Source: Patescibacteria group bacterium
GTDB taxonomy: Bacteria; Patescibacteriota; Patescibacteriia; UBA2591; UBA4787
Reading direction: 5' to 3'
Assembly (NCBI GenBank): GCA_028715115.1
Contig: JAQUSN010000001.1
Location: 385,746-449,745 of the forward strand
Length of the DNA: 64,000 bases
Positions 6,473 to 57,658 of this stretch are shown here, piece by piece (position 1 is the first letter of the stretch; the number at the start of each line of letters is the position of its first letter). Under the pieces are notes generated by a model. The model was given only the letters and a program-made list of their open reading frames with translations. It was not told the origin of the DNA and searched no databases. The translations under genes were made by a program, and so were the position numbers.

Positions 6473-6535
6473 GGGGTGCGGATCCGCCTTCGCCAGTTGG
6501 CGAATGGCGGACGACCATACCCCCGCCTGCCATCG
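6473..6535. repeat. GC-rich palindromic hairpin element (core TTCGCCAGTTGGCGAA)
   Basis: GGGGTGCGGATCCGCCTTCGCCAGTTGGCGAATGGCGGACGACCATACCCCC; the same core occurs at 17907 and related cores at 12450, 20475, 26120, 51497 and 57294. Confidence 0.5.
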
Positions 6536-6541
6536 CCTTAA

Positions 6542-6612
6542 TCGGGGTACTGGGAATTGAACCCAGGCTACACCCACCCCAAGGGTGCGGACTACCGTTA
6601 TCCGATACCCCG
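6542..6612 (-). tRNA. tRNA-Pro (anticodon GGG)
   Basis: The reverse complement folds as CGGGGTA/TACCCCG acceptor, GGAT..GTCC D-arm, anticodon stem CACCC/GGGTG with loop TTGGGGT, and T-arm CTGGG-TTCAATT-CCCAG; no CCA is encoded. Confidence 0.85.
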
Positions 6613-7646: not shown

Positions 7647-8022
7647 AATTATCGCCTAATATTTAGTTAATAATGCTAATCTTAAAAATTATTATGCTAA
7701 CCCGCCTGCCAAAGCCACCCTTTGGAAAAATGGGTGGTTTATTAAATAAATTTGAAAATATTAGAACTTAAAATTTATTGCAGATTGGCAATTGGCGGGG
7801 CAGGTCTACAGATTGCTAATAAGCTAGATTCGTGATTCGCATTATTAGCATAAGCAAGTGGATTAGCATTTTATATTTTATGCCAGGCAGTAGAAGTTTG
7901 ATAGTACCTTGGTTTCGCACTACTCGGACTAATCTATTTTAAAATCATTTAAATTATTTATTTCTTAATTTGCGCCCTTAAAATCGCACTAATTAAGAAG
8001 CATTAAGCTTTCGCTATTCGGT

Positions 8023-8442
8023 ATGCCGACAATTCATCAACTTATTAAAAAGCAACGCAGAAGTTTACGTTCAAAGTCTAAGGCCCCGGCTTTTCAGACG
8101 ACTTTTAACGTTTTACGACGTAAGAGATTCCAGTTGGCCAGCGGTCGTCCTTTTTTGCGCGGTGTTTGTCTTAAGGTTACGACCATGACACCGAAAAAAC
8201 CGAATTCGGCTCTGCGAAAAATCGCCCGTGTCAGATTGTCAAATGGCATGGAAGTTACTGCTTATATTCCCGGTATCGGTCATAATTTACAAGAACACTC
8301 TATTGTCATGTTGCGCGGTGGCAGAGTAAAAGACTTGCCCGGCGTGCGCTATCATGTGGTTCGTGGAGTTTACGATACAAGTGGCGTCGAAGGTAGAAAG
8401 CAGGCGAGAAGTTTGTATGGCGCCAAGCGAGGCAAAAAATAA
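8023..8442 (+). CDS. rpsL: 30S ribosomal protein S12 (with N-terminal insertion)
   Basis: PTIHQL...[16 protein letters not shown]...[14 protein letters not shown]. Confidence 0.95.
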
Positions 8443-12439: not shown

Positions 12440-12495
12440 TGCTATCTCTGCCATTCGTCATTCGCCAACCGGCGAAGGCGAAGGTGGATTGCTAA
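12440..12495. repeat. GC-rich TTCGCC/GGCGAA hairpin element downstream of tuf (terminator-like)
   Basis: CCATTCGTCATTCGCCAACCGGCGAAGGCGAAGGTGG imperfect palindrome. Confidence 0.4.
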
Positions 12496-12905: not shown

Positions 12906-13073
12906 CCTTATAATATAGTTCTTAACCAATGCGCTGGTGAAGATGATAGTTATAATTTCGGTTCGCCGAAGAATGTAGCTATCGTATCACTATGCCGAGA
13001 GGTTATTTGTAGGTCAGAAAAATTTAAGATTTAGATTCGACTTGTTCGAAAGTGATTTGTTAATCTAAATAAT

Positions 13074-13106
13074 AAAAATCTGGCCTAAAAACCAGATTTT
13101 TGTTTA
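13074..13106 (+). terminator. Rho-independent terminator in the unusual 208-nt rpsJ-rplC spacer
   Basis: AAATCTGGCC-TAAAAA-CCAGATTT plus TTTGTTT. Confidence 0.5.
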
Positions 13107-13113
13107 TTATAAT

Positions 13114-17872: not shown

Positions 17873-17894
17873 AGGGTTTCACCCTTTGTTGCCG

Positions 17895-17950
17895 GTGCTT
17901 CCACCATTCGCCTTCGCCAGTTGGCGAATAGCAAGGACGAAGGCGGATCG
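17895..17950. repeat. GC-rich palindromic hairpin element (core TTCGCCAGTTGGCGAA), inverted relative to the 6473 copy
   Basis: CCACCATTCGCCTTCGCCAGTTGGCGAATAGCAAGGACGAAGGCGGATCGG; shares GATCCGCCTTCGCCAGTTGGCGAA with the 6473 element. It follows a small AAAGGGT-TTC-ACCCTTT hairpin after rpmC. Confidence 0.45.
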
Positions 17951-18006
17951 GAAAAGAAAAAAATAATTTTTTTTCTCGCTCGCTCGCTTAAAAATAAATA
18001 AATATT

Positions 18007-18731: not shown

Positions 18732-18770
18732 GTGATTTTCTTGGAATTTTCAAACCAAAGGAGCAGAAAA

Positions 18771-18905
18771 TTCTTTAGAAAATCCTTACCCCCTCACTCA
18801 TTTTGCTAATTTAGTCAGCTCTATAACTATTCATCAATATAATTAAAGTAGTTTGATAAAAATTATTAGATTTTTGAGTGAAGGGGTGCTCAAAATTCTA
18901 AGAAA
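18771..18905. repeat. Long inverted-repeat element (arms TTAGAAAATCCTTACCCCCTCACTCA / TGAGTGAAGGGGTGCTCAAAATTCTAA) with a TATAAT in its loop, in the rplN-rplX spacer
   Basis: 27-nt arms separated by about 75 nt; a third arm copy lies at 20518-20545 and a related hairpin at 24957-25023. Confidence 0.5.
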
Positions 18906-18945
18906 ATTTATTCACTACGTTCTAAAATTTTAAGAATTTTGGCAT

Positions 18946-20459: not shown

Positions 20460-20469
20460 ATGTTTTGTT

Positions 20470-20545
20470 AAAAATTTAGATTCGCCATCCGTCCACTGAC
20501 GGAGGCGAAGAATAAATTTTTTAGAAAATGCTTACCCCTTCACTC
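20470..20545. repeat. TTCGCC..GGCGAA hairpin (20475-20503) followed by a third copy of the TTAGAAAATGCTTACCCCTTCACTCA arm
   Basis: TTCGCCATCCGTCCACTGACGGAGGCGAA; TTAGAAAATGCTTACCCCTTCACTCAAA is roughly 90% identical to 18771-18798. Confidence 0.4.
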
Positions 20546-20645
20546 AAATTTTTAAATACCCGCCTGTTTCAGTAAAATTATTAAGATTTAGATATTATTT
20601 TCTATCATTGTCACAAAATAACTCGTAAATTTCGACAATTTTTGT

Positions 20646-21604: not shown

Positions 21605-22087
21605 ATGATTGAGAAAAAACGTCGAAGAAGAGAAGGGCCTGAAGCGGGAGGAGAAAAGGAATTTGATCAAAGATTATTAGACTTAGCCCGCGTTACGCGC
21701 GTGACAGCTGGCGGAAAACAACTTCGTTTTCGTGCCTGTGTTGCCATTGGCGACAAAAAAGGTAGAGTCGGCATAGGTACCTCTAAGGGTCCGGACGTTT
21801 CAACTGCTATTGAAAAAGCTGTTCGTCAAGCCAAAAAAAATGTTATTAATGTTTCTATTGTTAATGAAACCATTCCTCATTGGGTAAAAGAAAAATATGG
21901 CGCAGCTTCTATCTTGCTTCGACCGGCCGGTCGCGGCAAAGGCATTATTGCCGGTAGCGTAATTCGTATTATTACTGAATTAGCCGGTATTTCTAATATT
22001 ACGGCAAAAATATTAGGGTCAAATAACAAGATTGCTAATGCCAAAGCAACAATTAATGCTTTACTAAAACTTAAAAAAATGGTTTAG
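21605..22087 (+). CDS. rpsE: 30S ribosomal protein S5
   Basis: RVTRVTAGGKQLRFRA and GTSKGPDV motifs. Confidence 0.95.
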   Translation: MIEKKRRRREGPEAGGEKEFDQRLLDLARVTRVTAGGKQLRFRACVAIGDKKGRVGIGTSKGPDVSTAIEKAVRQAKKNVINVSIVNETIPHWVKEKYGAASILLRPAGRGKGIIAGSVIRIITELAGISNITAKILGSNNKIANAKATINALLKLKKMV

Positions 22088-22093
22088 TTTATT

Positions 22094-22317
22094 TATGCCC
22101 AGTAACAAAACTTCACCAGCCCGCTAGGGCGGTCTGAAAGTTCCGTTTTTGGGCTCACTCCAATAAATTAAAAAAAATTTCATCTTCAAGCATAATAGTT
22201 TAAAGATGCCAACCGTAATTAAAATTATATTAACTTGTATTTTTAATCAATTTATTTTATTTCACCTTGACGCCTAATAATTTGGCATCTTTGTGAAGTT
22301 ATTGTTACCTGGGTATG
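22094..22317. mobile_element. MITE-like element copy 1 (about 224 nt) with about 24-nt terminal inverted repeats, occupying the rpsE-rplO spacer (where rpmD/L30 normally lies) and ending in the rplO ATG
   Basis: 5' TATGCCCAGTAACAAAACTTCACCAGCCCGC and 3' GTGAAGTTATTGTTACCTGGGTATG are reverse complements. An internal inverted pair AAGATGCCAA / TTGGCATCTT is present. A second copy lies at 53977-54198. Confidence 0.5.
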
Positions 22318-24949: not shown

Positions 24950-24956
24950 TATTTGA

Positions 24957-25023
24957 GTATCCTATCCGGGGATGTATAATAGGTTACCCTTCCTAACGTC
25001 GGGGTACTCAAATTTGTAAGAAC
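24957..25023. repeat. Hairpin element (arms ATTTGAGTATCC / GGGGTACTCAAAT) with a TATAAT in its loop, homologous to the 18878-18945 region
   Basis: GGGGTACTCAAATTTGTAAGAACTTTAC...GTTCGTAAATTTCAACAAATTTGGTATG aligns with GGGGTGCTCAAAATTCTAAGAAAATTTAT...GTTCTAAAATTTTAAGAATTTTGGCATATG. Confidence 0.4.
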
Positions 25024-25067
25024 TTTACTTCGCTATAAGATAGTTCGTAAATTTCAACAAATTTGGT

Positions 25068-31160: not shown

Positions 31161-31196
31161 AAAGCAGGTGAATTTTGCACCTGCTTTATATATTTT
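31161..31196 (+). terminator. Rho-independent terminator separating the PLP-enzyme gene from the methyltransferase array
   Basis: AAAGCAGGTG-AATTTTG-CACCTGCTTT plus a T-rich tail. Confidence 0.55.
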
Positions 31197-31215
31197 AAAA
31201 AATAAATTTGATTTT

Positions 31216-32130
31216 ATGTCGAAGAAAACATTTATCACGCAAAAACAATATTGGACTAAAGTGGCAGCTGATTGGCAATTAAAGGGTGATCCATCTAGAC
31301 CGAGCCGTGATACGGTAAGGTTATATAACAAATTTATGGCAGAGGCCCTGGGAACGTCGCTAGGGAAAAAAGTGGTGGTAATGGGAGCAACGCCTGAAAT
31401 TAGGGATATGCTTTATAAATATTATTTTTTAAATAGAATTAAAGTGGTTTGTGCAGAGTGGCTCCCAGAAATGTATTATGGTATGACCGAACTTGTTAAT
31501 CATAAAATTCCCGGGGAAAAATTCGTTAAAACAAATTGGCTTAAAATGGGATTTCCCAATAAAAGTATTGATGTATTTATTGCCGATTTGATTTTTGGCA
31601 ATATTATTGACTTACCGAGTAAGGATTTATTGTTAAGTAAAATGAATCAAAAACTTAAAAAGGGCGGTTATTTCATCCTTCGCCATTGTTATGTCGTTCC
31701 AAAAAACAAAGTAGTTAATGTCAAAAAACATCTTTTTAATATATCAAAAGACGTTTTGACAGAAAAAAGAACCATAAAACAGGTGGCAACTAGCTTTTGG
31801 ACCGACCTAGTAATCGGTTCATGGTTTGAAAATAAAGAGAATAAGCTTTCTCTTTATTATTATAAAAAAGATATTCAAGATCTAAAAAAATATTTTTCTC
31901 GCAAAGGGTTATCCTATCAAGCCAGAGCGGCAAAATTAGTCTTCGATTATTTTCTGTTTTTGGCAAAAGATCATATTGCTAGAAAATTTTGGGTTCATTA
32001 TCCCAGGCCAATAGAAGAAAAATTAATTAAAAAATATTTTGTCATAAAAAAAACATCATTTCCCCAAGATTATGAGGCTAAAATAAGCGAACCGATTTAT
32101 TTATTACAAAAAAGAGAATTAAAAAAATAG
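31216..32130 (+). CDS. Tandem-array paralog P1: class-I SAM-methyltransferase-fold protein with non-canonical motif I
   Basis: W..W...RPSRDT...VVVMGATPEIRDM ... FIADLIFGN ... LKKGGYFILR ... C-terminal PIYLLQKR; start taken at MSKKTF. Confidence 0.75.
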   Translation: MSKKTFITQKQYWTKVAADWQLKGDPSRPSRDTVRLYNKFMAEALGTSLGKKVVVMGATPEIRDMLYKYYFLNRIKVVCAEWLPEMYYGMTELVNHKIPGEKFVKTNWLKMGFPNKSIDVFIADLIFGNIIDLPSKDLLLSKMNQKLKKGGYFILRHCYVVPKNKVVNVKKHLFNISKDVLTEKRTIKQVATSFWTDLVIGSWFENKENKLSLYYYKKDIQDLKKYFSRKGLSYQARAAKLVFDYFLFLAKDHIARKFWVHYPRPIEEKLIKKYFVIKKTSFPQDYEAKISEPIYLLQKRELKK

Positions 32131-32134
32131 GTAT

Positions 32135-33031
32135 ATGTCGAAAAAGCAATATAATCCTATTTGGGAAAGGCAGCGAGCCGATTGGTGGGCTTATTTTTGG
32201 GGCGGTGCGAAAGCTCCCTGGCGGCCGACCAAAAAAGAGGTTTTATTTTTTAAGAATTTTATAAAAAGATTATTAAAGGAAAGAGAGCGTCTTGAAATTT
32301 TAATTTTAGGCTCGACCCCAGAGTTTAGGGATATGCTTTTTGGGATGCGTGGGGTAAAGGTAACCCTGATTGATTTAAATTTAACTGCCAAAAAGGGTAT
32401 GGATAAATTATGCCGGGCTAGCAATAAAAGAGAGAAGTTGGTAATGGGCGATTGGCTCAAAATGAATCATTTATTTCCGTTTCATTATTTCGATGTCATC
32501 GTAAACGATGAGGGGTTTGAAAATATTGACGTTAAAAAACATACCTTATTATTTAAAAATATTCATGATATTTTAAAAAGAGATGGATATTTTCTTTCCG
32601 GCCGAGCTTGTCTAGAGCCGCTTCGTAAAACACGCATAACCTTTAAACAATTTTTTGCTAAATATAAAAAAGATCCGCATTTTTTCCATAATTTTTATAA
32701 CCGTCTGTGGTACTTATATCGACTTATTTTTTCTCCTGAAATACGAGTTTATGATTACAAAAAACAAGGCGGAAAACTGGGTCGTTTAGCCACAGAAGTG
32801 GTTAAAAAAGCCGCTCAGGAAAAAATTTATGATATTAAATATTTAAATTGGGATCATCGGATAGATTATCGCGACCCCTCTATTCGGAATTATATGGAAG
32901 TTGATATTTGCAGTTGGAAGAGATTAAAAAAAATGATTACCAAATATTTCATAATTCAAGAAACTTATCAAGATTTATTTCATCCGGTTATGAAGCAAAA
33001 GTATAATTTTATTTTGAGCCCCAAAAATTAA
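32135..33031 (+). CDS. Paralog P2 of the MTase-fold family
   Basis: APWRPTKKE...ILILGSTPEFRDM...IDLNLTA...GDWLKM...FDVIVNDEG...LKRDGYFLSG. Confidence 0.75.
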   Translation: MSKKQYNPIWERQRADWWAYFWGGAKAPWRPTKKEVLFFKNFIKRLLKERERLEILILGSTPEFRDMLFGMRGVKVTLIDLNLTAKKGMDKLCRASNKREKLVMGDWLKMNHLFPFHYFDVIVNDEGFENIDVKKHTLLFKNIHDILKRDGYFLSGRACLEPLRKTRITFKQFFAKYKKDPHFFHNFYNRLWYLYRLIFSPEIRVYDYKKQGGKLGRLATEVVKKAAQEKIYDIKYLNWDHRIDYRDPSIRNYMEVDICSWKRLKKMITKYFIIQETYQDLFHPVMKQKYNFILSPKN

Positions 33032-33036
33032 TCTTT

Positions 33037-33909
33037 ATGAAGAAAAGGATTATTAAACCAGAGCCAAAAGGATGGCAAAAAATTCAGCAAGCTTGGCAAA
33101 AAATGACCTCTCCCTCCAGGCCATCATTAGGCGATATGAAGATTTATAATGATTTCATGGCCGCGGTTCTTAATAAATGCGCCCATGGTAGGGTTTTGAT
33201 ATTAGGCGCTACTCCGGAATTGAGGAATTTGGTTATGAAACGAGCCTTATCTCGGAGAATAGACCTTTATTTATTAGATTTAAATCAGGACATGATCCGC
33301 GCGATGGACCAATTTATAGAGATAAAAAATGTAGTCCAGAAAAAAATAATAGGGGGTTGGCTAAGCATGCCGTTTAAAAATGAATATTTTGACGTGGTGT
33401 TGGGCGATGAGGTTCTAATTAACGTTGACCAAGAAGATAGAGAAAAATTATTATTAGAAATATCTCGCGTTTTAAAGAAGCGAGGAGCCTTTATTACTAG
33501 GGCTTCTCACGTAAATCCGCAAGCCCGAACATTTACGGTCCGTAAATCGTTTGACAAATATACTAATCTTTATTTACAAAACAAATTAACCTTTAATCAG
33601 GTTTTGAATTACCTATTTGAAGAAATGTTTGAGCTAAGTTATTTTAAAAATAAAAAAAAGTTTTTGTTAATTAAAACATTATTGCCAGAATGCCTGAAAG
33701 AGGCGAGATCGTCCAAACCATTGAAAAAATTTATTATTAATTCGTTCATCCGAGAATATAAGGCCTTATTTAATCAATGCTGGTCGTGGGAGTTAAAATC
33801 AGCGCAAATCAAAAGATTTAAAAAGTATTTTTTGATTAAAAAAATTAAATCGGCAAATGATTATTGGTATGCCCATATTTTGCCGATTTATTTATTAATT
33901 AAAAATTAA
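33037..33909 (+). CDS. Paralog P3
   Basis: SPSRPSLGD...VLILGATPELRNL...LDLNQDM...GGWLSMPF...FDVVLGDEV...LKKRGAFITR...PIYLLIKN. Confidence 0.75.
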   Translation: MKKRIIKPEPKGWQKIQQAWQKMTSPSRPSLGDMKIYNDFMAAVLNKCAHGRVLILGATPELRNLVMKRALSRRIDLYLLDLNQDMIRAMDQFIEIKNVVQKKIIGGWLSMPFKNEYFDVVLGDEVLINVDQEDREKLLLEISRVLKKRGAFITRASHVNPQARTFTVRKSFDKYTNLYLQNKLTFNQVLNYLFEEMFELSYFKNKKKFLLIKTLLPECLKEARSSKPLKKFIINSFIREYKALFNQCWSWELKSAQIKRFKKYFLIKKIKSANDYWYAHILPIYLLIKN

Positions 33910-33913
33910 CTTT

Positions 33914-34759
33914 ATGGAAAATAAAAGAATAGAAATGAAAAGCAGCTGGAAGACAATGGCCCATTTATGGGCTAGCTATGCGCCGCCGGCTAAACCTTCG
34001 CCAATAGAGATTAATTTTTTCGAACAATATCTTAAAAAGATGCTTAAAAAAAACAAAAGCCTTAAGGCGCTGGTCTTAGGCTCTACGCCGGAATTTCGCG
34101 ATTTGTTAGCTAAATACAAAGTAGACACGACTGTAGTCGACAATAATCCGATTTATATTAAGGCCATGGCGCAATTGACAAAACGACACAATCCCAAAGA
34201 AAGGACCATTATTTCTGATTGGTTGACGATGTCATTTAAGCCCAATACCTTTGATCTTGTTTTAAGTGATTCAGCCCAAGATAACATTAAATTCAGCGAA
34301 TTTTTTAAATTATTAAATTTATTGTATAAAATTTTAAAACCAACTGGTTGTTGGTTTTTTGGGGCGATTTGCGGTCGCAAAGACGCTCAGATAAGTTTTA
34401 CTAAATACGTCGATCTTTATCGGGAAACCCCCGGTCATTTTAGAGATTTTAGAAATAAAACTTATCGTTATTTTCAGCTTTGTTTTAATCGAGAATTTTA
34501 TAATACTAAAACTAAGAAATTCAATTTTAAGATTGTTGACACAAAGGTGACAAACTTAGTGGCCAAGAAAAAATTGTCTCCGTCAGCTTTAAAATATTTG
34601 TGTTTTAATTTGGGGGATTACCGACAGACAACGCTGACGCAAAATGTGTTTGAAAAGATATTGACTAAGAATTTTAAAATTTTAGCGACCAAGAGAGATA
34701 ATAGTCATATTGTAATGAAAAATAAATGGGCGGCAATTTTAGGGTCTAAGAAATCATAA
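33914..34759 (+). CDS. Paralog P4
   Basis: PPAKPSPIE...ALVLGSTPEFRDL...VVDNNP...SDWLTMSF...FDLVLSD...LKPTGCWFFG. Confidence 0.75.
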   Translation: MENKRIEMKSSWKTMAHLWASYAPPAKPSPIEINFFEQYLKKMLKKNKSLKALVLGSTPEFRDLLAKYKVDTTVVDNNPIYIKAMAQLTKRHNPKERTIISDWLTMSFKPNTFDLVLSDSAQDNIKFSEFFKLLNLLYKILKPTGCWFFGAICGRKDAQISFTKYVDLYRETPGHFRDFRNKTYRYFQLCFNREFYNTKTKKFNFKIVDTKVTNLVAKKKLSPSALKYLCFNLGDYRQTTLTQNVFEKILTKNFKILATKRDNSHIVMKNKWAAILGSKKS

Positions 34760-34763
34760 TTAT

Positions 34764-35588
34764 ATGGCAAAAATAAAAGAATTACCTTGGAACGAGCAAT
34801 TTGCGATTGCTTGGGCAAAAATGGCACCACCTGCTCGTCCCAGTCAAACCGAACAGAGATTTTACGAAAAGATAATCAAACAAGTCATAAAGGATAATAA
34901 AAATCCCAGAATTTTGATTTTAGGTTCAACTCCAGAATTCAGAGATATTCTACTTAGAAATAAAGTTAAACCAATCTGCTGCGATATTAATCGGGACGTT
35001 TTTAAATCGCTGACTAGAATTATGCGTCGGCGAGGCGTTGAAACCTTTATCTTGTCCGATTGGATTAAGCTTAAAACAAAAGCTAGGTTTGATTTAGTTT
35101 TGGGCCATCAGGTTATTAATATGCTTTCGCCGGTTAAGCAGGCTGTCTTTTTCAAACAGATTTATCGGCACCTTAAACCAGGCGGACTATTCATTACTTC
35201 TGTGGTAATTAGAGCGAACGACCGAGCTATTTCTCTATTAAGTGGCTTTAAGCGTTATCGTAAGTTTAAAACAATTAATATTCGTGACGCTTTTTCGACT
35301 ATTCATCCCGACCTGCTTCTGGCGATTAGCGGGCATACTGGCACTTATTCGCCCACGCAATGCTTGAAAATTGTAGATCAACTTTATCGAGGGAGCGAAA
35401 TTAGTAAAAAAGAGCGGGATATCTATTTTAAAATTATGCCGTCAAATGATTTGAAGGTTTATATACCAAATCAAAAATCTATTGAGGCATTAATAAAAAA
35501 ATATCTTAAAATTTTGCTGATTTACCACTATCCGACTAAATATTATAATTCAAAACATTGGCCGGTCTATTTATTAAGAAAAAGATAA
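34764..35588 (+). CDS. Paralog P5
   Basis: PPARPSQTE...ILILGSTPEFRDI...CDINRDV...SDWIKL...FDLVLGH...LKPGGLFITS...PVYLLRKR. Confidence 0.75.
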   Translation: MAKIKELPWNEQFAIAWAKMAPPARPSQTEQRFYEKIIKQVIKDNKNPRILILGSTPEFRDILLRNKVKPICCDINRDVFKSLTRIMRRRGVETFILSDWIKLKTKARFDLVLGHQVINMLSPVKQAVFFKQIYRHLKPGGLFITSVVIRANDRAISLLSGFKRYRKFKTINIRDAFSTIHPDLLLAISGHTGTYSPTQCLKIVDQLYRGSEISKKERDIYFKIMPSNDLKVYIPNQKSIEALIKKYLKILLIYHYPTKYYNSKHWPVYLLRKR

Positions 35589-35591
35589 TTT

Positions 35592-36434
35592 ATGAGAATT
35601 TTAACTCACTTACAAGGGTTTTTAAGGCTACAATGGGCAAAACAACGTCCGCCGCTTATTCCTTCTGTTGATGAATGTAAAATTATTAAAAATTTCATCA
35701 AAAAGGAAGTATATAATTCCAATAAAATATTAAAGATTCTTATCTTGGGTTCAACTCCGCGATTTAGAGATTTAGCCCACTCTTTTAAGAGCGAAGTAAC
35801 TTGCGCTGATATGAATATAGACATGTTGCCAGCCATGGCTGCCTTAATGACCAATCCCCGGGCGGCCGAGAAAGAGGTTTGGGTTCGTGCCAATTGGCTA
35901 CAAATGCCGCTTCGGAATAACTATTATGATATAGTCTTGGGCGATTGGGTTATTAGTAATTTACCATTAAAATTGCAATCAGTATTTTTTAAGAAAATTT
36001 CTTTGCTTATAAGGTCGGGCGGCCATTTTATCACTCGAGCATCATTATATTCGGGCGATTTAGTGCCATTCGAAAAAGCTTTGAAATTATGGTTATCTGG
36101 CAAATGGGACAATTCGCATTTAATGATGTCAGCAGCTCATCTGGACTTTAATCCACACACCTATCAGTCGCACAGTGCAAGGTTTAGAGTTAAGGGAGCT
36201 CAGGCGATTAGTAAGTTAATGTGGCAGGAAAAGAATAAACAAAATAAATCCAAATTAAAGCAAGCTATTAAAGTCCTGAAAGAATGGTTGCCAACTGGAA
36301 TGACCTGGATTTATACTCCTAAAAATGTTTTAGAATTAATAATTGAAAAATATTTTCAAATTAAAAAAATTGATTATGCCCGAGATCATTATTTAGCCCA
36401 AGCTTGCCCGATCTATTTTTTAAGAAAAAGATAA
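35592..36434 (+). CDS. Paralog P6
   Basis: PPLIPSVDE...ILILGSTPRFRDL...CADMNID...ANWLQMPL...YDIVLGDWV...IRSGGHFITR...CPIYFLRKR; roughly 60% identical to P9 over its core. Confidence 0.75.
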   Translation: MRILTHLQGFLRLQWAKQRPPLIPSVDECKIIKNFIKKEVYNSNKILKILILGSTPRFRDLAHSFKSEVTCADMNIDMLPAMAALMTNPRAAEKEVWVRANWLQMPLRNNYYDIVLGDWVISNLPLKLQSVFFKKISLLIRSGGHFITRASLYSGDLVPFEKALKLWLSGKWDNSHLMMSAAHLDFNPHTYQSHSARFRVKGAQAISKLMWQEKNKQNKSKLKQAIKVLKEWLPTGMTWIYTPKNVLELIIEKYFQIKKIDYARDHYLAQACPIYFLRKR

Positions 36435-36444
36435 TTAAAATACT

Positions 36445-37269
36445 ATGGCAAAAACCAAAAAGGTGATTAACAAAAAACCATTTCAAGCCTTTGCGGCGCG
36501 TTGGGCGAAAACTTTGCCGCCGGCTCGGCCAGCCAAGGAAGATATAATGGCTTATCGGAAATTATTTAATCAATATAAGAGTAAAACCGGCAAAACCAAA
36601 TTATTAATTTTGGGAGCCACTCCAGAATTACGAGATTTAGCGGCCAGTCTTAAATTTGACGTAACTGTTGCTGATTTTAACATTGAAATGATTAAGGCTT
36701 TAACGCCATTGCGTAAAACGAAAAGCAAAGAAAAATTTGTTATTAGTTGGTGGCAGAAGATTCCAGTTAAAGATCATTATGATATTATTACGGGCGATGT
36801 AGCGGTAAACATGCTCGATAAAAAAGATATCCCCGTGCTATTAAAAAGAATCAAGGATCTGTTGGTGCCTGGCGGATATTTTATTCATCGCGATGCAGTT
36901 TATAATCCCGAGAAGAAATTAAAGGCTAGATGGATTATCAATGCTTGGCGAAATAAAAAGATAGACATCGGAGACTTTCGTTGGTTAATTGAAATGCATT
37001 CAGAATTTAAGTCTTATGATGTTAAAACCGGCGTGGATAGCAAAACGGTGCTTTATAATAATATTCATAAGATGTGCGAACAAGGGTTATTAACCAAAAA
37101 AGAGCTAGATAAATTCGGCGTGTTTAATGATAATGTTAGAATTACGATTTTAACCAAATCAGGTTGGCATAAATTATATTCCAAATTTTTTAGGCCAATT
37201 AAATGCGCCTGCCCTGGAGGTCATATGTTTTGCGCTGATTTGCCAATTTGCGTTTATAAAAATAAATAA
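36445..37269 (+). CDS. Paralog P7
   Basis: PPARPAKED...LLILGATPELRDL...VADFNIE...SWWQKIPV...YDIITGD...LVPGGYFIHR. Confidence 0.75.
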   Translation: MAKTKKVINKKPFQAFAARWAKTLPPARPAKEDIMAYRKLFNQYKSKTGKTKLLILGATPELRDLAASLKFDVTVADFNIEMIKALTPLRKTKSKEKFVISWWQKIPVKDHYDIITGDVAVNMLDKKDIPVLLKRIKDLLVPGGYFIHRDAVYNPEKKLKARWIINAWRNKKIDIGDFRWLIEMHSEFKSYDVKTGVDSKTVLYNNIHKMCEQGLLTKKELDKFGVFNDNVRITILTKSGWHKLYSKFFRPIKCACPGGHMFCADLPICVYKNK

Positions 37270-37270
37270 T

Positions 37271-38176
37271 ATGAAAAAAAATTATATTCGTCAAAAACCA
37301 AAAAACATTAAAGTCTGGAGTAAAATAGCCTGCGGCTATTCTAAGTTAGTCGTTCCCAACCGTCCCAGCGACCATGATTGCGCTAATTATGCTCATTATA
37401 TCTATAAAATTTTGAAGGATGTAAATAATCCTAAAATTATGCTGATGGGCTCAACGCCAGAACTGCGTAGCATTTTATATACTTATACTTTTAAGAAAAA
37501 GGCACAAATTTTTACGGTTGATTTATCGGCGGATATGCATCAAGCGATGAGAGAATTCGTTGTGCCGGCCACTAAGCCCGAATTAAAAGAAGAGTTTTTT
37601 TGCGGTTCTTGGTTAAAAACAAATTTTCCTGATAACTTTTTTGATCTAGTTGTAGGCGATGAAGTGATTTGCAATGTTTGCGCCGATCAACATCAAAATT
37701 TATTTGCCGAAATCAACCGCATTTTAAAAAATGGCGGCCATTGGGTAACGCGACATAATTTTTATCTGGCAGAAAATGTCAAACAATCTCCCAAAAGCAT
37801 AATTTTAAATATCGTGGATAATATTAATGACGGAAAATACACTTTTCAATACAGTATAAACATTCTTTATTTACTTTTATTTTATCGTTTAGTTATCGAT
37901 CAAGCTCAACATTGTGTCAATGTAAGTGATGAAATTAAAGTAATCAAAAAAATATTACCAAACATTTCAAATATTAAGCAGCGTCAAACACTGAAGGAAT
38001 TATTAAGAGTATTTGAAAAATACTTCGGAAGCTATAAAAATTATTATTGGTATGTTTTGTCGAAACAGGAAAGCTTAAAAGAATTGAAGGATTATTTTCA
38101 ATTTAAAGGAGAGTTATATGCGAAAGATTATCTGACGGTTCGTCATTCACCAATTTGGTTATTAAAGAAAAAATAA
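37271..38176 (+). CDS. Paralog P8
   Basis: VPNRPSDHD...IMLMGSTPELRSI...TVDLSAD...GSWLKTNFP...FDLVVGDEV...LKNGGHWVTR...SPIWLLKKK. Confidence 0.75.
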   Translation: MKKNYIRQKPKNIKVWSKIACGYSKLVVPNRPSDHDCANYAHYIYKILKDVNNPKIMLMGSTPELRSILYTYTFKKKAQIFTVDLSADMHQAMREFVVPATKPELKEEFFCGSWLKTNFPDNFFDLVVGDEVICNVCADQHQNLFAEINRILKNGGHWVTRHNFYLAENVKQSPKSIILNIVDNINDGKYTFQYSINILYLLLFYRLVIDQAQHCVNVSDEIKVIKKILPNISNIKQRQTLKELLRVFEKYFGSYKNYYWYVLSKQESLKELKDYFQFKGELYAKDYLTVRHSPIWLLKKK

Positions 38177-38177
38177 T

Positions 38178-39026
38178 TTGTTAAATATTATTATGAAAAA
38201 AACAAATTCAATTTCTTGGCATACTAGTGTTGCTGAACGTTGGAAAATTTATGATTCACCGGCACGGCCATCGAAAGGCGAGTGTCAGATAATTCAGGAA
38301 TTTATCAATAGTCATAAAAAAAATCCAAAAATCTTAATCTTAGGTTCTACGCCTGAATTTAGAGATTTGGCGCACAATCTTCGAGCTGAAATAACTTGCG
38401 TAGATGCTAGTTTAGAAATGTTAATAGGCATGTCGGAATTAATGAAACATAAGAATCTAGTTAATCAAGAAATTTGGTTCAGATCCAATTGGTTAACCAT
38501 GCCCGTAACAGAAAATTATTACGATTTTGTCCTGGGCGATCTGGTGGTGACCAATTTACCCTTGCAGCTTCAGCCGGTTTTTTTGAAAAAGATTAAGAGT
38601 ATTTTGAAACCCGGCGGATATTTTATTACCCGCGACTGGTGGCCACCTATCGTAAAGTCGTCTCTTGAATCTGCCATTGACAGATTAAGTAAGCGAGGTA
38701 TTAACAAAAAAAGTATTAATATTTTGACCTGGGATTTATTAAATTTGTCCTACAATTATCAGAAAAAAATTGCTACGACCGACGAAATGTATCGCCTAGT
38801 TAAGGATTTAAGGCAGAAGGGAAAAGATCAAAAAAAGAAAAAATGGCTATCGACATTAATGAAACATGTCGTTTATAACTATCCATTGGGCAAAACCTGG
38901 TTTGTTAAGATGAGACCGGAAGCCGAAAAAACTTTTAGTAAATATTTTCAAATTAAATCGGTTCAGTGTACTAAAGATCATTGTCGAGCCGATCAATGCC
39001 CGATATATTTTCTTAAAAAATCATGA
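38178..39026 (+). CDS. Paralog P9
   Basis: SPARPSKGE...ILILGSTPEFRDL...CVDASLE...SNWLTMPV...YDFVLGD...LKPGGYFITR...CPIYFLKKS. Confidence 0.75.
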   Translation: MLNIIMKKTNSISWHTSVAERWKIYDSPARPSKGECQIIQEFINSHKKNPKILILGSTPEFRDLAHNLRAEITCVDASLEMLIGMSELMKHKNLVNQEIWFRSNWLTMPVTENYYDFVLGDLVVTNLPLQLQPVFLKKIKSILKPGGYFITRDWWPPIVKSSLESAIDRLSKRGINKKSINILTWDLLNLSYNYQKKIATTDEMYRLVKDLRQKGKDQKKKKWLSTLMKHVVYNYPLGKTWFVKMRPEAEKTFSKYFQIKSVQCTKDHCRADQCPIYFLKKS

Positions 39027-39535
39027 TAAATAAAGCAATATCACAGCACCAGTCTTGGGCTTATTTATCTAATACGTGGAGCAAGTATATTGCCCCGCCG
39101 GCAAAGCCTTGCCCAGGACAATTAAAAATTTTTTCTAAACTTATTACTCGCGGAAAATTTTCTTTCCCAAGAAAGGCCCTTATTCTTGGCGCTACGCCAG
39201 AGTTACGTAATTTAGTCTTAAAGCATGGATTTCAAGTAACGGTTTGTGACATAAGTATCGATATGATAAAGGCAATGACGCAATCAGTTATTAAAAATTT
39301 ACGGTACAAAGAAAAAACTATAGTAGGGGATTGGCTATCAATTAATTTACCTAGTCATAGTTTTGATTTAATTATGGGTGACGGTTCCTTAAACCAATTA
39401 CTAGAATCGACTCGGGTTAAAAAACTACTAATAAAAATTAAAAATTTATTATCTCCTCATGGAATTTTGCTTTTTCGAGAGGTGATAAGATCATCAAAAA
39501 AAACCATTAATAAGTTCAGAAAAAGACTGGATTAA
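39023..39535 (+). pseudogene. Paralog P10, N-terminal part (frameshifted/split gene)
   Basis: PPAKPCPGQ...ALILGATPELRNL...VCDISID...GDWLSINLP...FDLIMGD..., but it terminates after 170 aa. The remainder continues in another frame at 39540. Confidence 0.6.
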
Positions 39536-39539
39536 GCTA

Positions 39540-39869
39540 TTGTCTAATAATAAATTATCAAAAATAGATATAGTTAGTTTTTTAAAATATCAAAGCGATG
39601 CTAATCATTATAGTCATTCACCGTCTATAATTGACAGCCTGCCTGTTGCTGATAGAATTAAAAAATTATATCAAGCCGGTAGTTGTTCAAAATCTTTTTA
39701 TACGTGGGCTAATATCGCTTTAGGCAATAAATCAAAACCGGCATTGGTCTTTTTACAAAAAGACCTGGAAGGATTATTAAGAAAATATTTTAAATTAGCT
39801 AGAATTACCCAATGTCATGATTATCACCATTGTAGATATATGCCCTTATATCTCGCTAGGCCAAAATAA
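39540..39869 (+). pseudogene. Paralog P10, C-terminal part
   Basis: Ends in the family C-terminal motif (CRYMPLYLARPK); frame +1 relative to 39023..39535. Confidence 0.55.
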
Positions 39870-39874
39870 ATTTT

Positions 39875-40729
39875 ATGAAAAAACACACTAAAAATATACA
39901 GGCCTGGAAATCTGTCTCCGATGTTTGGGGGTCGCTTAGACCGCCCCTGAGACCGTCGGTAGGGGAGATAAGAATCTATGAAAAATTCTTAAAAAGAATT
40001 TTACCCAAAATTTCATCTCGTCGTGCTTTATTGTTCGGCGCCACGCCGGAATTACGTGATTTATTGGCAAAATATAATTTTCAAGTTACGCTGATTGATA
40101 TTAATCCGGCCATGGTAAATGCAACGACAAAATTGCTTAAACGCAAAAATCACCAAGAAAAAATAATCATTGGTGACTGGCTAAAAACTCCATTAGCACT
40201 ATACAAGTATGATGTAATAATGGGTGATCATATCATGGGCAATGTTAAGTTTAGAAGGTGGGATCAGTTTCTCCGTCGAATTATTGGTTTATTGTCATCT
40301 AATGGTTATTATATCACTAATGTTCAGTTAAAATTTCCGGTGAAGAAAATTATTTCATTCGAAAAATTAATTGATTCATATTTAAAATATCCTAAAAAAT
40401 TCGATAACATAGAATATCAATGGCAAATGTTGTATCAGATGATGTATGGCGATAAAAGATTTTGCGGCTATCCTGATTATTTGATTCTTTGGCCGGCTAT
40501 ACCGCAGATACAAAAGTTTTTAGAAAAGAGTAAAATATTTATGGACAACCACGGGATTGCCAAGTTGGCCAGCAATATCTATGTAAAAGAATTTAAATAT
40601 TCGTCGCCGCCGCGTCAGGTTTTTGAAAAAATATTTAAAAAAAGATTTAAAATTATAGACTCTGATATCAGTAGGAAACATCTTGTTTATCAAAGTTATC
40701 GCATTTATTTGGCAAAGCCATTGAGATAG
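39875..40729 (+). CDS. Paralog P11, the last member of the array
   Basis: PPLRPSVGE...ALLFGATPELRDL...LIDINPA...GDWLKTPL...YDVIMGD...SYRIYLAKPLR. Confidence 0.75.
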   Translation: MKKHTKNIQAWKSVSDVWGSLRPPLRPSVGEIRIYEKFLKRILPKISSRRALLFGATPELRDLLAKYNFQVTLIDINPAMVNATTKLLKRKNHQEKIIIGDWLKTPLALYKYDVIMGDHIMGNVKFRRWDQFLRRIIGLLSSNGYYITNVQLKFPVKKIISFEKLIDSYLKYPKKFDNIEYQWQMLYQMMYGDKRFCGYPDYLILWPAIPQIQKFLEKSKIFMDNHGIAKLASNIYVKEFKYSSPPRQVFEKIFKKRFKIIDSDISRKHLVYQSYRIYLAKPLR

Positions 40730-53972: not shown

Positions 53973-53976
53973 TGCT

Positions 53977-54198
53977 ATGCCCAGTAACAAAACTTCACCA
54001 GCCCGCCAGGGCGGTCTGAGAGTTGCTTTGTTCTTGGGTTTATCTCAAAAAATAAAATAGGTGCATTTTAAAAGAACTATTAGTCTTAAAGATGCCAACT
54101 AATTAATTAGAATCTCGTTTCTTTTCAACTAATTTACTTTTATTCATTTTGATGCTTATTAATTTGGCATCTTTATGAAGTTATTGTTACTGGGTATG
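53977..54198. mobile_element. MITE-like element copy 2 (about 222 nt), ending in the dnaG ATG
   Basis: Same TIRs as copy 1 (TATGCCCAGTAACAAAACTTCACCAGCCCGCCAGGGCGGTCTGAGAGTT ... TTGGCATCTTTATGAAGTTATTGTTACTGGGTATG); the central part has diverged from copy 1. Confidence 0.5.
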
Positions 54199-57218: not shown

Positions 57219-57280
57219 GACCTGGTAAAAATTTTAAAATAGTATATAATAATTCATCGGTAAACTTGCAGCGCTCCGGG

Positions 57281-57322
57281 GTAGCTCTCCGCCAGCTGGC
57301 GGAGGTGGAGCGACTATTTTTT
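57281..57322 (+). pseudogene. Partial duplicate of the tRNA-Asn 5' region (acceptor plus D-stem) with the D-loop replaced by the palindrome TCCGCCAGCTGGCGGA
   Basis: TCCGGGGTAGCTC-TCCGCCAGCTGGCGGA-GGTGGAGCGACT versus the genuine TCCGGGGTAGCTC-AAT-GGTGGAGCGACT at 57584. Confidence 0.5.
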
Positions 57323-57338
57323 AGGTAAGCGTGATCAT

Positions 57339-57593
57339 ATGAGCTATTTTGTTTACGCTATCTATAACAAAGACCACAAAAAGATTTATATCGGTCAAAC
57401 AGATGATATAAAGAATAGATTATTATTACATAACGATCATCTATTTAAGAAAAGTTATACATCTAGATTTGATGGTGATTGGTCCCTTATATATAAGGAG
57501 AAAATAGAAAATAGGCAGGAAGCCTTAATAAGGGAAAAGGAACTAAAAAGTTATCGTGGCAGACAATTTATAAAACAATATATTCCGGGGTAG
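57339..57593 (+). CDS. Stand-alone GIY-YIG nuclease-domain protein (84 aa); its stop codon lies inside the tRNA-Asn acceptor stem
   Basis: YFVYAIYNKDHKKIYIGQTDDIKNRLLLHN (GIY...YIG), R and E of the catalytic core (RQEALIREKE). Confidence 0.75.
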   Translation: MSYFVYAIYNKDHKKIYIGQTDDIKNRLLLHNDHLFKKSYTSRFDGDWSLIYKEKIENRQEALIREKELKSYRGRQFIKQYIPG

Positions 57594-57658
57594 CTCAATG
57601 GTGGAGCGACTGACTGTTAATCAGTAGGTTGTGGGTTCGAGTCCCACCCCCGGAGCCA
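57584..57658 (+). tRNA. tRNA-Asn (anticodon GTT); CCA encoded
   Basis: TCCGGGG-TA-GCTC-AATGGTG-GAGC-G-ACTGA-CTGTTAA-TCAGT-AGGTT-GTGGG-TTCGAGT-CCCAC-CCCCGGA-G-CCA. Confidence 0.9.

Follow-up and report, generated by a model that had tools for sequence, protein, structure and literature searches.

Two copies of a short, hairpin-forming element lie within a 64,000-nt stretch of DNA from a Patescibacteria group bacterium (contig JAQUSN010000001.1, positions 385,746 to 449,745; hereafter the window), each ending on the start codon of a gene, rplO in one case and dnaG in the other. Our preferred reading, to which we give a probability of roughly 0.8, is that these copies are derivatives of tiny selfish elements of the Patescibacteria (Candidate Phyla Radiation, CPR) that encode a GIY-YIG nuclease, and that they are non-autonomous, devoid of the nuclease open reading frame (ORF) and comparable to MITEs (miniature inverted-repeat transposable elements). 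In the autonomous form, of 317-324 bp, two imperfect terminal inverted repeats (TIRs) of 19/20 nt surround a single nuclease gene of ~98 amino acids (aa). The element occupies a (T/C)ATG start codon in one orientation, its own 5' ATG taking over the host initiation site and starting the nuclease ORF; that ORF ends inside the 3' repeat, and the host gene, now displaced, starts instead from the 3' ATG of the element.

A first-pass annotation of the window had proposed two ~223-nt copies with TIRs, and this is borne out by the two copies, A and B (Table 1), which measure 224 and 223 nt. The boundaries originally drawn for copy A are exact, while the start of copy B moves by one base, from 53977 to 53976. 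Both copies begin with TATG-CCCAGTAACAAAACTTCAC and end with (G/A)TGAAGTTATTGTTAC(C)TGGG-TATG; these ends, first described as imperfect inverted repeats of ~24 nt, pair as a 23-bp stem, and the inner inverted pair AAAGATGCCAA/TTGGCATCTTT was recovered as well. The copies agree at 43 of the first 44 nt and are almost identical over the last ~40 nt, whereas their centres have indeed diverged, the interiors being ~70% alike (mean column identity of the whole copies 84%, global identity 82%). The 20-nt 5' arm occurs exactly twice in the 64 kb, against an expectation of 0.01, and the GC hairpin motif likewise exactly twice, against an expectation of 0. As in typical MITEs, the copies are smaller than ~500 bp, have no transposase ORF, carry TIRs, are dispersed, and have a partner with the same ends that does bear an ORF.

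The terminal ATGs are, as the first pass had read them, the initiation codons of the genes behind them. The gene that follows copy A encodes ribosomal protein L15 (Pfam Ribosomal_L27A) and starts at the last ATG of the element, with the gene for S5 upstream; in DnaG, counting the protein from 54196, the zinc-ribbon domain starts at residue 2, and a further in-frame ATG lies at 54175, within the 3' arm of copy B. Copy A was also said to fill the place where rpmD usually lies. By conserved operon order this is true, but it is incidental, since the element stands at the rplO start codon just as it stands at many other genes elsewhere. No GGAGG-like motif precedes the rplO or dnaG ATG in either sequence, and a promoter and terminator scan of the copies revealed neither a site common to both nor an outward promoter.

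Further copies proved to be plentiful in other genomes and in metagenomes, always terminating on a start codon and always in sense orientation. A scan of one genome per species with the terminal-arm pattern returned 28 loci, the true matches lying in metagenome-assembled genomes (MAGs): two from Kerfeldbacteria, one other from Patescibacteria, one from Saccharibacteria, and one that carries the label Gammaproteobacteria. Elements with the same ends are found in several Patescibacteria genomes. A metagenome scan with the 3' end of the element returned 98 stretches, and a scan of IMG/VR with the same 3' end gave no match. Together with the window, 141 fetched loci made up the 142 sequences that were examined for ends and ORFs.

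The principal family (fam1) comprises 56 distinct units of 110-473 nt. Its arms, of 19/20 nt with one bulge, are near-invariant across 54 units; in the overview of the family (137-420 nt), interiors and lengths are variable and the ends almost invariant. Units stand singly or in head-to-tail arrays, where one TATG is common to both neighbours at each junction. A second family (fam2), whose ends are related to those of fam1 and read TATG-CCCAGTAATACAACTTGGC ... GCCAAGTTGATATACTGGG-TATG, often alternates with fam1 in these arrays. The count in the window is two copies plus one unit of a related subfamily (fam4), which is ~70% identical to a metagenome element (L130 4499-4642), and there are dozens of copies in other genomes. 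The particular architecture of the window copies, a GC hairpin, a decayed ORF remnant and the inner stem, recurs at loci L084, L062, L096, L113, L116, L117, and L121. The genes that follow the elements are mutually unrelated, among them rplO, dnaG, rpsL, rplX, rplQ, rplM, map, and serS, along with genes for PilB/PilT-like ATPases, a VirD4-like ATPase, an M50 peptidase, a sugar transferase, and an ABC permease. The copies belong to a dispersed family rather than being one leader RNA common to the two genes.

A simple rule describes where the elements lie. Of 65 distinct array loci, 56 have a T and 9 a C immediately ahead of the first ATG, and none has A or G; the rest of the flank shows no conservation. 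At every one of the 65, either a long ORF or the next unit begins with the last ATG, and all copies are in sense orientation relative to the downstream gene. The stop codon of the upstream gene usually lies 1-10 nt before the first ATG, so that the sites look like tightly coupled gene junctions. At nine of the loci the left-hand junction reads CATG and the right-hand one TATG, which assigns the right-hand T to the element and leaves at most the ATG duplicated. TATG...TATG is probably no true 4-bp target-site duplication; the junction pattern fits insertion at Y^ATG without duplication just as well as a 3-bp duplication.

Other insertions were seen within the elements themselves. A third hairpin family (CCCCG...CGGGG), flanked by TGAA...TGAA, is nested inside fam1 (L020 5950-6060, L060 ~2105-2245, and unit u41 of L083), and in the three elements it occupies the identical point of the 3' repeat, GTGAA^G, where autonomous copies have the nuclease stop TGA. 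Related insertions follow CCCAGTAA in the 5' repeat at L052, L114, L126, and L140. The TGAA flanks of the nested family suggest that each family has its own 4-nt junction.

The partner of the ORF-less copies is a class of units of 317-324 nt whose interior is filled by a single ORF, encoding a single-domain GIY-YIG nuclease of ~98 aa. The Pfam GIY-YIG match to this ORF has an E value of 1e-16 and is the sole Pfam domain of the proteins, which are 84-101 aa long. The coding sequence is interlocked with the repeats. Of 12 intact copies, 11 use the terminal ATG as the start of the ORF, and in all 12 the stop codon falls within the 3' repeat, 15-24 nt short of the final ATG; the nuclease ORF is placed on the host initiation site and an ATG is regenerated 15-24 nt past its stop. 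Many homologs begin with MPSN(N/K/T)TS, the translation of the 5' end of the element (ATG CCC AGT AAC). A tblastn search with the element nuclease gave no match in copy A or copy B. By its sequence, then, the partner encodes a GIY-YIG nuclease and no classical transposase.

Homologs of the nuclease fall into 108 clusters, almost all from Patescibacteria or groundwater metagenomes, and a representative library holds 1,021 homolog clusters at E<=1e-10. Across 35 homologs the catalytic residues (Y, Y-x-G, R, and E) do not vary. An AlphaFold (AF2) model with a pLDDT of 88.7 is closest to the UPF0213 protein BH0048 (1zg2, E 3e-5) and then to Slx1 (6sei, 7cq2), both ranking ahead of I-TevI and UvrC, and the best annotated plasmid match is yazA, at 41.5% identity. 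These matches point to the YazA/YhbQ/Slx1-like branch of the GIY-YIG nucleases.

The window's own genome appears to hold an intact autonomous copy. The window L15 is identical to a protein of the NCBI MAG GCA_028713815.1 (the nearest other L15 is 64% identical), and in an exact look-up of this L15 the matching contigs all break inside the element. On another contig of that MAG, an autonomous copy (L041 3000-3317) lies between dnaA and a gene for a T2SSE (PilB-like) ATPase, in the layout dnaA-TAA-tttg-TATG[...98-aa ORF P0066...]GGTGAAGTTATTGTTACTGGG-TATG. Its first 24 nt are identical to the window copies (24/26 at the 5' end, the differences falling just inside the arm), and its 3' arm is one base different from each of them. 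Taking GCA_028713815.1 as the source of the window on the strength of the L15 identity, autonomous and ORF-less forms are present side by side in one genome.

A nuclease found between the ends of a transposon might of course be a passenger, and the window copies would then be classical MITEs of a DDE transposon of the IS630/Tc1 type, with a TA target and the GIY-YIG ORF carried between the ends CCCAGTAAC...GTTACTGGG. TIRs, small size, high copy number, and the TA in the flanks are all what such an origin would predict. Yet among the 142 sequences the GIY-YIG gene is the only type of ORF found between these ends; 12 or more diverged copies carry it, and the repeats themselves supply its start and stop codons. 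No pair of these ends was found to enclose a longer element. The flanks, moreover, are YATG/TATG and not a simple TA duplication, and insertion is orientation-specific. We regard a DDE origin as very improbable.

The ORF-less copies retain traces of the coding form. One conserved stretch of nucleotides, TTGGCATC, read in two frames, gives the nuclease C-termini ...VWH... and ...LAS..., and it pairs with GATGCCAA, which encodes D-A-K within the conserved EDAKQREKYLKT motif. Because this pairing is present in the coding element, the window copies have inherited their inner stem, a cis feature, from it. Three metagenome elements (L053, L056, and L083) retain residues 40-98 of the ORF, with the N-terminal half replaced by a GC hairpin; this hairpin is also part of the window class, so these deletion intermediates link the autonomous form to the class to which copies A and B belong.

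Intermediates of deletion and decay are also what would be left if every copy came from an independent full-length insertion that decayed in place, the relics being immobile, neutral 5' leaders today. The limited likeness of the A and B interiors and the extra C private to the 3' arm of copy A point the same way. On the other hand, the same ORF-less architecture is found at unrelated loci of other genomes (those listed above), other ORF-less families have copies at separate loci of one genome that are 94-97% identical, and the ends have stayed near-identical while the interiors diverged. Decay in place is therefore judged unlikely, with a modest chance of being correct, and derivation as mobilised ORF-less units is preferred.

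Several observations support mobility, horizontal spread, and polymorphic occupancy. At an orthologous ABC-ATPase/ABC-permease junction, the element is 95% identical between two genomes (L037 and L105) whose flanks are 76% and 72.5% identical; identity falls sharply at both ATGs, and the codon differences are 10 synonymous and 4 non-synonymous. A fam2 unit at this locus is present in some samples and absent from one. In a relative of the window organism whose operon is 74-82% identical (L121), a unit of the window class separates rpmC from rpsQ, the corresponding place in the window being taken up by unrelated sequence. The family is also a nuisance to assemblers: independent short-read assemblies break at GTTACTGG, with N runs or contig ends there or inside the element at L029-L038 and L039, and in this way it fragments CPR assemblies at essential operons. 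In sum, the proposal of the first-pass annotation that the element is a small non-autonomous transposon inserting at start codons is supported by the further copies, their sense position at start codons, a partner with the same ends, and variable occupancy.

In the sample that lacks the fam2 unit (L037 1066-1090 vs L029 1964-1990), the first six codons of the permease differ (MPRPVIY vs MQLSVIY), within surroundings that are 94-100% identical. The differing start reads ATG CCC AGG, which resembles the 5' end of the element, and this may be a footprint or a conversion tract.

Both window copies fold strongly, with minimum free energies of -59.8 (A) and -66.6 kcal/mol (B) and z scores of -5.9 and -6.8. 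Each forms a closed hairpin consisting of the 23-bp terminal stem, the GC-rich hairpin, and the inner stem; the terminal stem takes in U.G/A-U/U-A/G.U pairs between the two TATGs and has a conserved 1-nt bulge on its 3' arm. All families have a design in three parts, in which a terminal stem is followed by an insert on the 5' side while the 3' strand continues into an inner stem, and in each family a helix defect lies 7-11 bp above the base (the 1-nt 3'-arm bulge in fam1, a 3x3 internal loop in fam2). The terminal stem of the window class is invariant, and its inner stem offers one compensatory change (in L121) and one U.G pair. In fam2, 29 pairs are 96.8% paired, and 8 of them have compensatory changes, a result that 0 of 500 shuffles reach; in slid controls the paired fraction goes down to 28-40%. 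At one fam2 pair, for example, 5 sequences have G-C, 4 have U-A, and 4 have C-G.

Such folding naturally brings to mind a structured RNA that serves the host, whether a leader or an inter-cistronic stem-loop of the rplO and dnaG mRNAs (an RNase III site, an attenuator, or a ribosomal-protein leader). The sense strand folds strongly, the stems are conserved and covary, and the start codon is sequestered in the stem. In addition, short ORF-less units show a partial enrichment, which the window class lacks, for an ATG frame that stays open to the next ATG: 20 of 55 units have one where 7.4 would be expected, and 13 of 42 clusters where 5.2 would be (~2.5-fold). Against a host RNA, the antisense strand of the copies folds nearly as well as the sense strand, the two copies have no promoter in common, the downstream genes are unrelated, units occur in tandem arrays and vary between relatives, and the full form holds a nuclease gene. 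Rfam 15 at the gathering threshold yields only tRNAs in the window, and neither the element nor the autonomous copy has a match at E<=1. The conserved regulatory leader shared by rplO and dnaG that the first pass had offered as its other possibility accordingly lacks support, and a host-serving RNA of any kind seems a slim prospect. An RNA role could be a secondary property of the selfish element, one that makes its insertions tolerable.

Alternatively the element might behave as an intron, with either self-cleavage and ligation or an endonuclease together with a ligase taking it out of the transcript, whereupon the mRNA would regain stop-NN-UAUG. The TATG...TATG direct repeats formally permit scarless excision, the element ends in G and follows U, and CPR rRNA genes tolerate many insertions, some of which encode GIY-YIG proteins (PMC11270868). 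There is no match to a ribozyme or intron model, however, and units of 137-150 nt with variable interiors have no conserved catalytic core, so that an intron is, in our estimation, the least probable of the explanations weighed here. Candidates dropped on sequence features were an IS630-type MITE, a group I intron, and a bulge-helix-bulge (BHB) intron. An integron attC site was also rejected, CAGTAAC ... GTTACTG being unfit for RYYYAAC/GTTRRRY; the window ORF list, which is not an exhaustive annotation, contains no integrase.

How might an element of this kind move and be tolerated? By analogy with the Ssn/NTS, IS200/IS605, and REP systems discussed below, the nuclease would mobilise both the full-length and the ORF-less units by binding the single-stranded DNA (ssDNA) hairpin formed by the paired ends and cutting at its base, beside YATG. 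The asymmetry of the inner stem argues for folding as a single strand. In full-length copies, ribosomes coupled from the upstream gene would first make the nuclease and, having terminated in the 3' repeat, would begin again at the host ATG by reinitiation. In ORF-less copies the ATG may be kept usable by the closed stem, by ribosomes that terminate just upstream and unwind the 5' arm, or by RNA processing or cleavage of the stem.

Several points weigh against this account. The transposition and the nuclease action of the element are predictions by analogy; to our knowledge GIY-YIG enzymes are hydrolytic, and we know of none that carries out strand transfer or joining. Covariation of the arms is equally expected for TIRs bound by protein in duplex DNA, and the one-sided changes, which on the sense strand favour G.U over A.C by ~11 to 5, are weak and undecisive between RNA and DNA folding. 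A YATG target alone fails to explain the absence of insertions at YATGs that are not start codons, and selection and mechanism are inseparable here. The copy number for the window organism covers the 64-kb window, its whole genome being outside the searched collection. The copies themselves might have decayed where they stand and not been mobilised in trans. Finally, the relay by reinitiation was rejected as an account of rplO and dnaG expression: the window copies have no ORF that spans them, their ATG-frame ORFs ending after 10 (A) and 27 codons (B).

The coordinates of the window elements and their parts are collected in Table 1.

Table 1. Elements in the window and their component parts
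Feature	Position	Strand	Remarks
Copy A, ORF-less fam1 element	22094..22317	+	224 nt; between the rpsE stop (TAG 22085-22087) and rplO
Copy A, 5' junction TATG	22094..22097	+	ATG opens a 10-codon ORF only; nuclease start in autonomous relatives
Copy A, 5' TIR arm CCCAGTAACAAAACTTCAC	22098..22116	+	
Copy A, GC-rich hairpin module CAGCCCGCTAGGGCGGTCTGA	22117..22137	+	in this subfamily, stands in for the N-terminal half of the nuclease ORF
Copy A, inner stem, 5' strand AAAGATGCCAA	22202..22212	+	corresponds to D-A-K codons (GATGCCAA) of the nuclease ORF
Copy A, inner stem, 3' strand TTGGCATCTTT	22282..22292	+	corresponds to C-terminal codons of the nuclease ORF; nucleotides conserved in two reading frames
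Copy A, 3' TIR arm GTGAAGTTATTGTTACCTGGG	22293..22313	+	conserved bulge of the family plus the extra C private to copy A
Copy A, 3' junction TATG	22314..22317	+	ATG 22315-22317 is the rplO start codon
Copy B, ORF-less fam1 element	53976..54198	+	223 nt; between the stop of a 120-aa ORF (TAA 53970-53972) and dnaG
Copy B, 5' TIR arm	53980..53998	+	
Copy B, GC-rich hairpin module	53999..54019	+	
Copy B, inner stem, 5' strand AAAGATGCCAA	54088..54098	+	
Copy B, inner stem, 3' strand TTGGCATCTTT	54164..54174	+	
Copy B, 3' TIR arm ATGAAGTTATTGTTACTGGG	54175..54194	+	first ATG in frame with dnaG
Copy B, 3' junction TATG	54195..54198	+	ATG 54196-54198 is the dnaG start codon
Related fam4 element (TATGCCAGGCAGTAGAAGTTTGATAG...CGCTATTCGGTATG)	7879..8025	+	147-nt hairpin; last ATG 8023-8025 is the rpsL start codon

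The window contains other features of interest. One is another GIY-YIG ORF of 84 aa at 57339-57593 (Pfam E 1.5e-14), distant from the element nuclease, to which it is 34% identical. It is flanked on one side by a partial duplicate of a tRNA 5' half (57274-57316, with a GC palindrome inside) and on the other by an intact tRNA (57584-57655), which it overlaps by 10 nt; the region 57274-57655 has the look of an insertion of another kind, in which a small nuclease gene targeted a tRNA and regenerated it. The ribosomal-protein operon contains several other spacers of 120-215 nt (12906-13113, 17873-18006, 18732-18945, 20460-20645, and 24950-25067), longer than is usual in it, and these end in ...ATATG, ...GCATATG, ...TGTATG, or ...GGTATG. 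Some of the spacers are strongly structured (S10-L3, z -6.2; L14-L24, z -5.5), a 26-nt motif, TTAGAAAATCCTTACCCCYTCACTCA, is common to the L14-L24 and S8-L6 spacers, and another motif, CGTAAATTTCRACAAWTTTKGTATG, is common to the S8-L6 and adk-map spacers. The long spacers are probably further families of elements.

Palindromes of 18-40 nt, rich in GC (TTCGCCAGTTGGCGAA, CCGCCAGCTGGCGG, CTGCCTACCGGTAGGCAGG), are scattered through AT-rich spacers at ~6500-6545, 12450-12490, 17905-17950, 20480-20510, and 57285-57305. The same palindromes appear as clean indels inside elements, otherwise alignable, at L053, L062, L083, and L006, including within the ORF remnant of L083, and they behave like another tiny insertion. 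Elsewhere in the window, a tandem array of ~10 paralogous genes of ~275-320 aa, with an LGSTPE(F/L)RD-like motif and a period of ~850-900 nt, occupies 31168-40729.

There is a substantial chance that the full-length element is a new class of mobile element. A more specific and frankly tentative proposal, which we would sooner doubt than defend in all its parts, is that of a "start-codon parasite": an element whose sole protein, a ~98-aa GIY-YIG nuclease, reads the element's own ssDNA hairpin, and which integrates at Y^ATG in operons with no classical transposase, captures host translation initiation for the nuclease, hands ribosomes on to the regenerated ATG, and spawns ORF-less units in tandem arrays ahead of essential genes across the CPR. 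No account of GIY-YIG micro-elements bounded by TIRs and directed at start codons came up in a literature search, and this targeting looks like an undescribed way for mobile DNA to live in essential operons. If the proposal is right, the element would be among the smallest autonomous mobile elements of bacteria (~320 bp with one 98-aa protein), and GIY-YIG proteins lie outside the recognised classes of transposase. Selfish DNA would then be tolerated in the ribosomal-protein and replication operons of streamlined genomes by replacing and resupplying the start codon. The many ~200-nt spacers in the ribosomal-protein operon would be accounted for, as would the assembly breaks there, and new nuclease/hairpin pairs with a defined cut context (YATG) would become available for ssDNA tools.

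The closest parallel turned up by the literature search is the Ssn study. SsnA of Neisseria meningitidis, a member of cd10448, is a single-domain GIY-YIG protein of 94 aa that binds a hairpin repeat only as ssDNA and only on one strand, and cuts a few nt upstream of the hairpin; Ssn genes are flanked by NTS/SRM repeats that are dispersed in hundreds of copies, and the authors call the arrangement of gene and repeats "identical to" that of an insertion sequence and liken it to IS200/IS605-REP (Chenal et al., Nat Commun 2025; PMC11893778). The CPR system shares with it a single-domain GIY-YIG protein of ~94-100 aa, a gene bracketed by hairpin-forming repeats, and ORF-less repeats dispersed beside genes, and the strand-specific ssDNA activity of SsnA is the one we propose by analogy for the CPR nuclease. 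The differences are equally clear. The CPR repeats are two arms of one long hairpin around the gene, the units have exact YATG...TATG bounds, lie only at start codons and in sense orientation, and form tandem arrays, and the detectable relatives of the nuclease are UPF0213/YazA and Slx1. The SRM motif HGTCWYN(0-2)YYVSBRHN(0-5)WNVSBRGN(0-2)RNCYNB occurs 0 times in the 64-kb window (shuffles average 0.2) and 0 times in six autonomous-copy loci. Judged by this absence and by those relatives, the window family does not appear to be part of the published Ssn/SRM system. Mobility, start-codon targeting, and translational embedding are not described in the available parts of the Ssn paper (PMC11893778), where a mobile origin of these hairpin-specific ssDNA nucleases was only hypothesised; the CPR elements, if mobile, would tie in with that origin. 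Ssn nucleases also act on transforming ssDNA in Neisseria. Since insertions at L012, L019, L020, L041, and L013 lie ahead of genes for type IV pilus/T2SSE ATPases and a VirD4-like ATPase, the element might have a link to DNA uptake, or this might equally be coincidence.

Among MITEs, the Correia (NEMIS) elements of Neisseria offer a good comparison, being ORF-less, 100-300 bp long, present in many intergenic copies with TIRs, co-transcribed with their neighbours, and derived from a longer element with the same ends. The partner in the CPR has a GIY-YIG nuclease in place of a DDE transposase, insertion is exact at start codons and specific in orientation, and the flanking repeat is fixed (YATG/TATG) rather than a variable target duplication. 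Elements of the IS200/IS605 family and the REP/REPIN-RAYT systems have hairpin ends with helix defects, a fixed tetranucleotide, no obvious duplication, strand specificity, and short non-autonomous derivatives. The CPR families resemble them in their conserved helix defects, their orientation specificity, and the spread of short hairpin derivatives. Their junctions, YATG on the left and the element's own TATG on the right, are compatible with insertion 3' of a fixed tetra- or pentanucleotide without duplication, and equally with a 3-bp duplication. The fold of the protein, however, is GIY-YIG and not HUH (Y1), and the ends pair with each other instead of forming separate hairpins. An HUH (Y1) TnpA is absent from the CPR element, whose only ORF is that of the GIY-YIG protein.

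The GIY-YIG homing genes of T4-like phages (Seg, Mob, and I-TevI) have the same catalytic domain, likewise lie between conserved genes, and have their translation embedded in host signals; horizontal spread into the same junction, as seen at the ABC-ATPase/ABC-permease locus, is a further likeness. The CPR protein differs in its size of ~98 aa and its lack of a DNA-binding domain, its many unrelated targets have only YATG in common, and the element has TIRs, ORF-less derivatives, and tandem arrays. The termini CCCAG/CTGGG are of the form CNNNG, which we take to be the motif of the I-TevI nuclease domain, and we note this as a lead only. The GIY-YIG ORFs found in some non-intron insertions of CPR rRNA genes (PMC11270868) may be related to the element.

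In sequence and fold, the best matches of the element protein are the Slx1/YhbQ/YazA (UPF0213) proteins. Slx1, YhbQ, and YazA form one family of structure-selective nucleases, and Slx1 cuts branched DNA (PMC7017083). These are single-copy cellular repair genes without flanking repeats, and Slx1 has in addition a zinc finger and a partner, Slx4, whereas the CPR nuclease is a lone domain enclosed, from its start codon to its stop, within the repeats of its own element.

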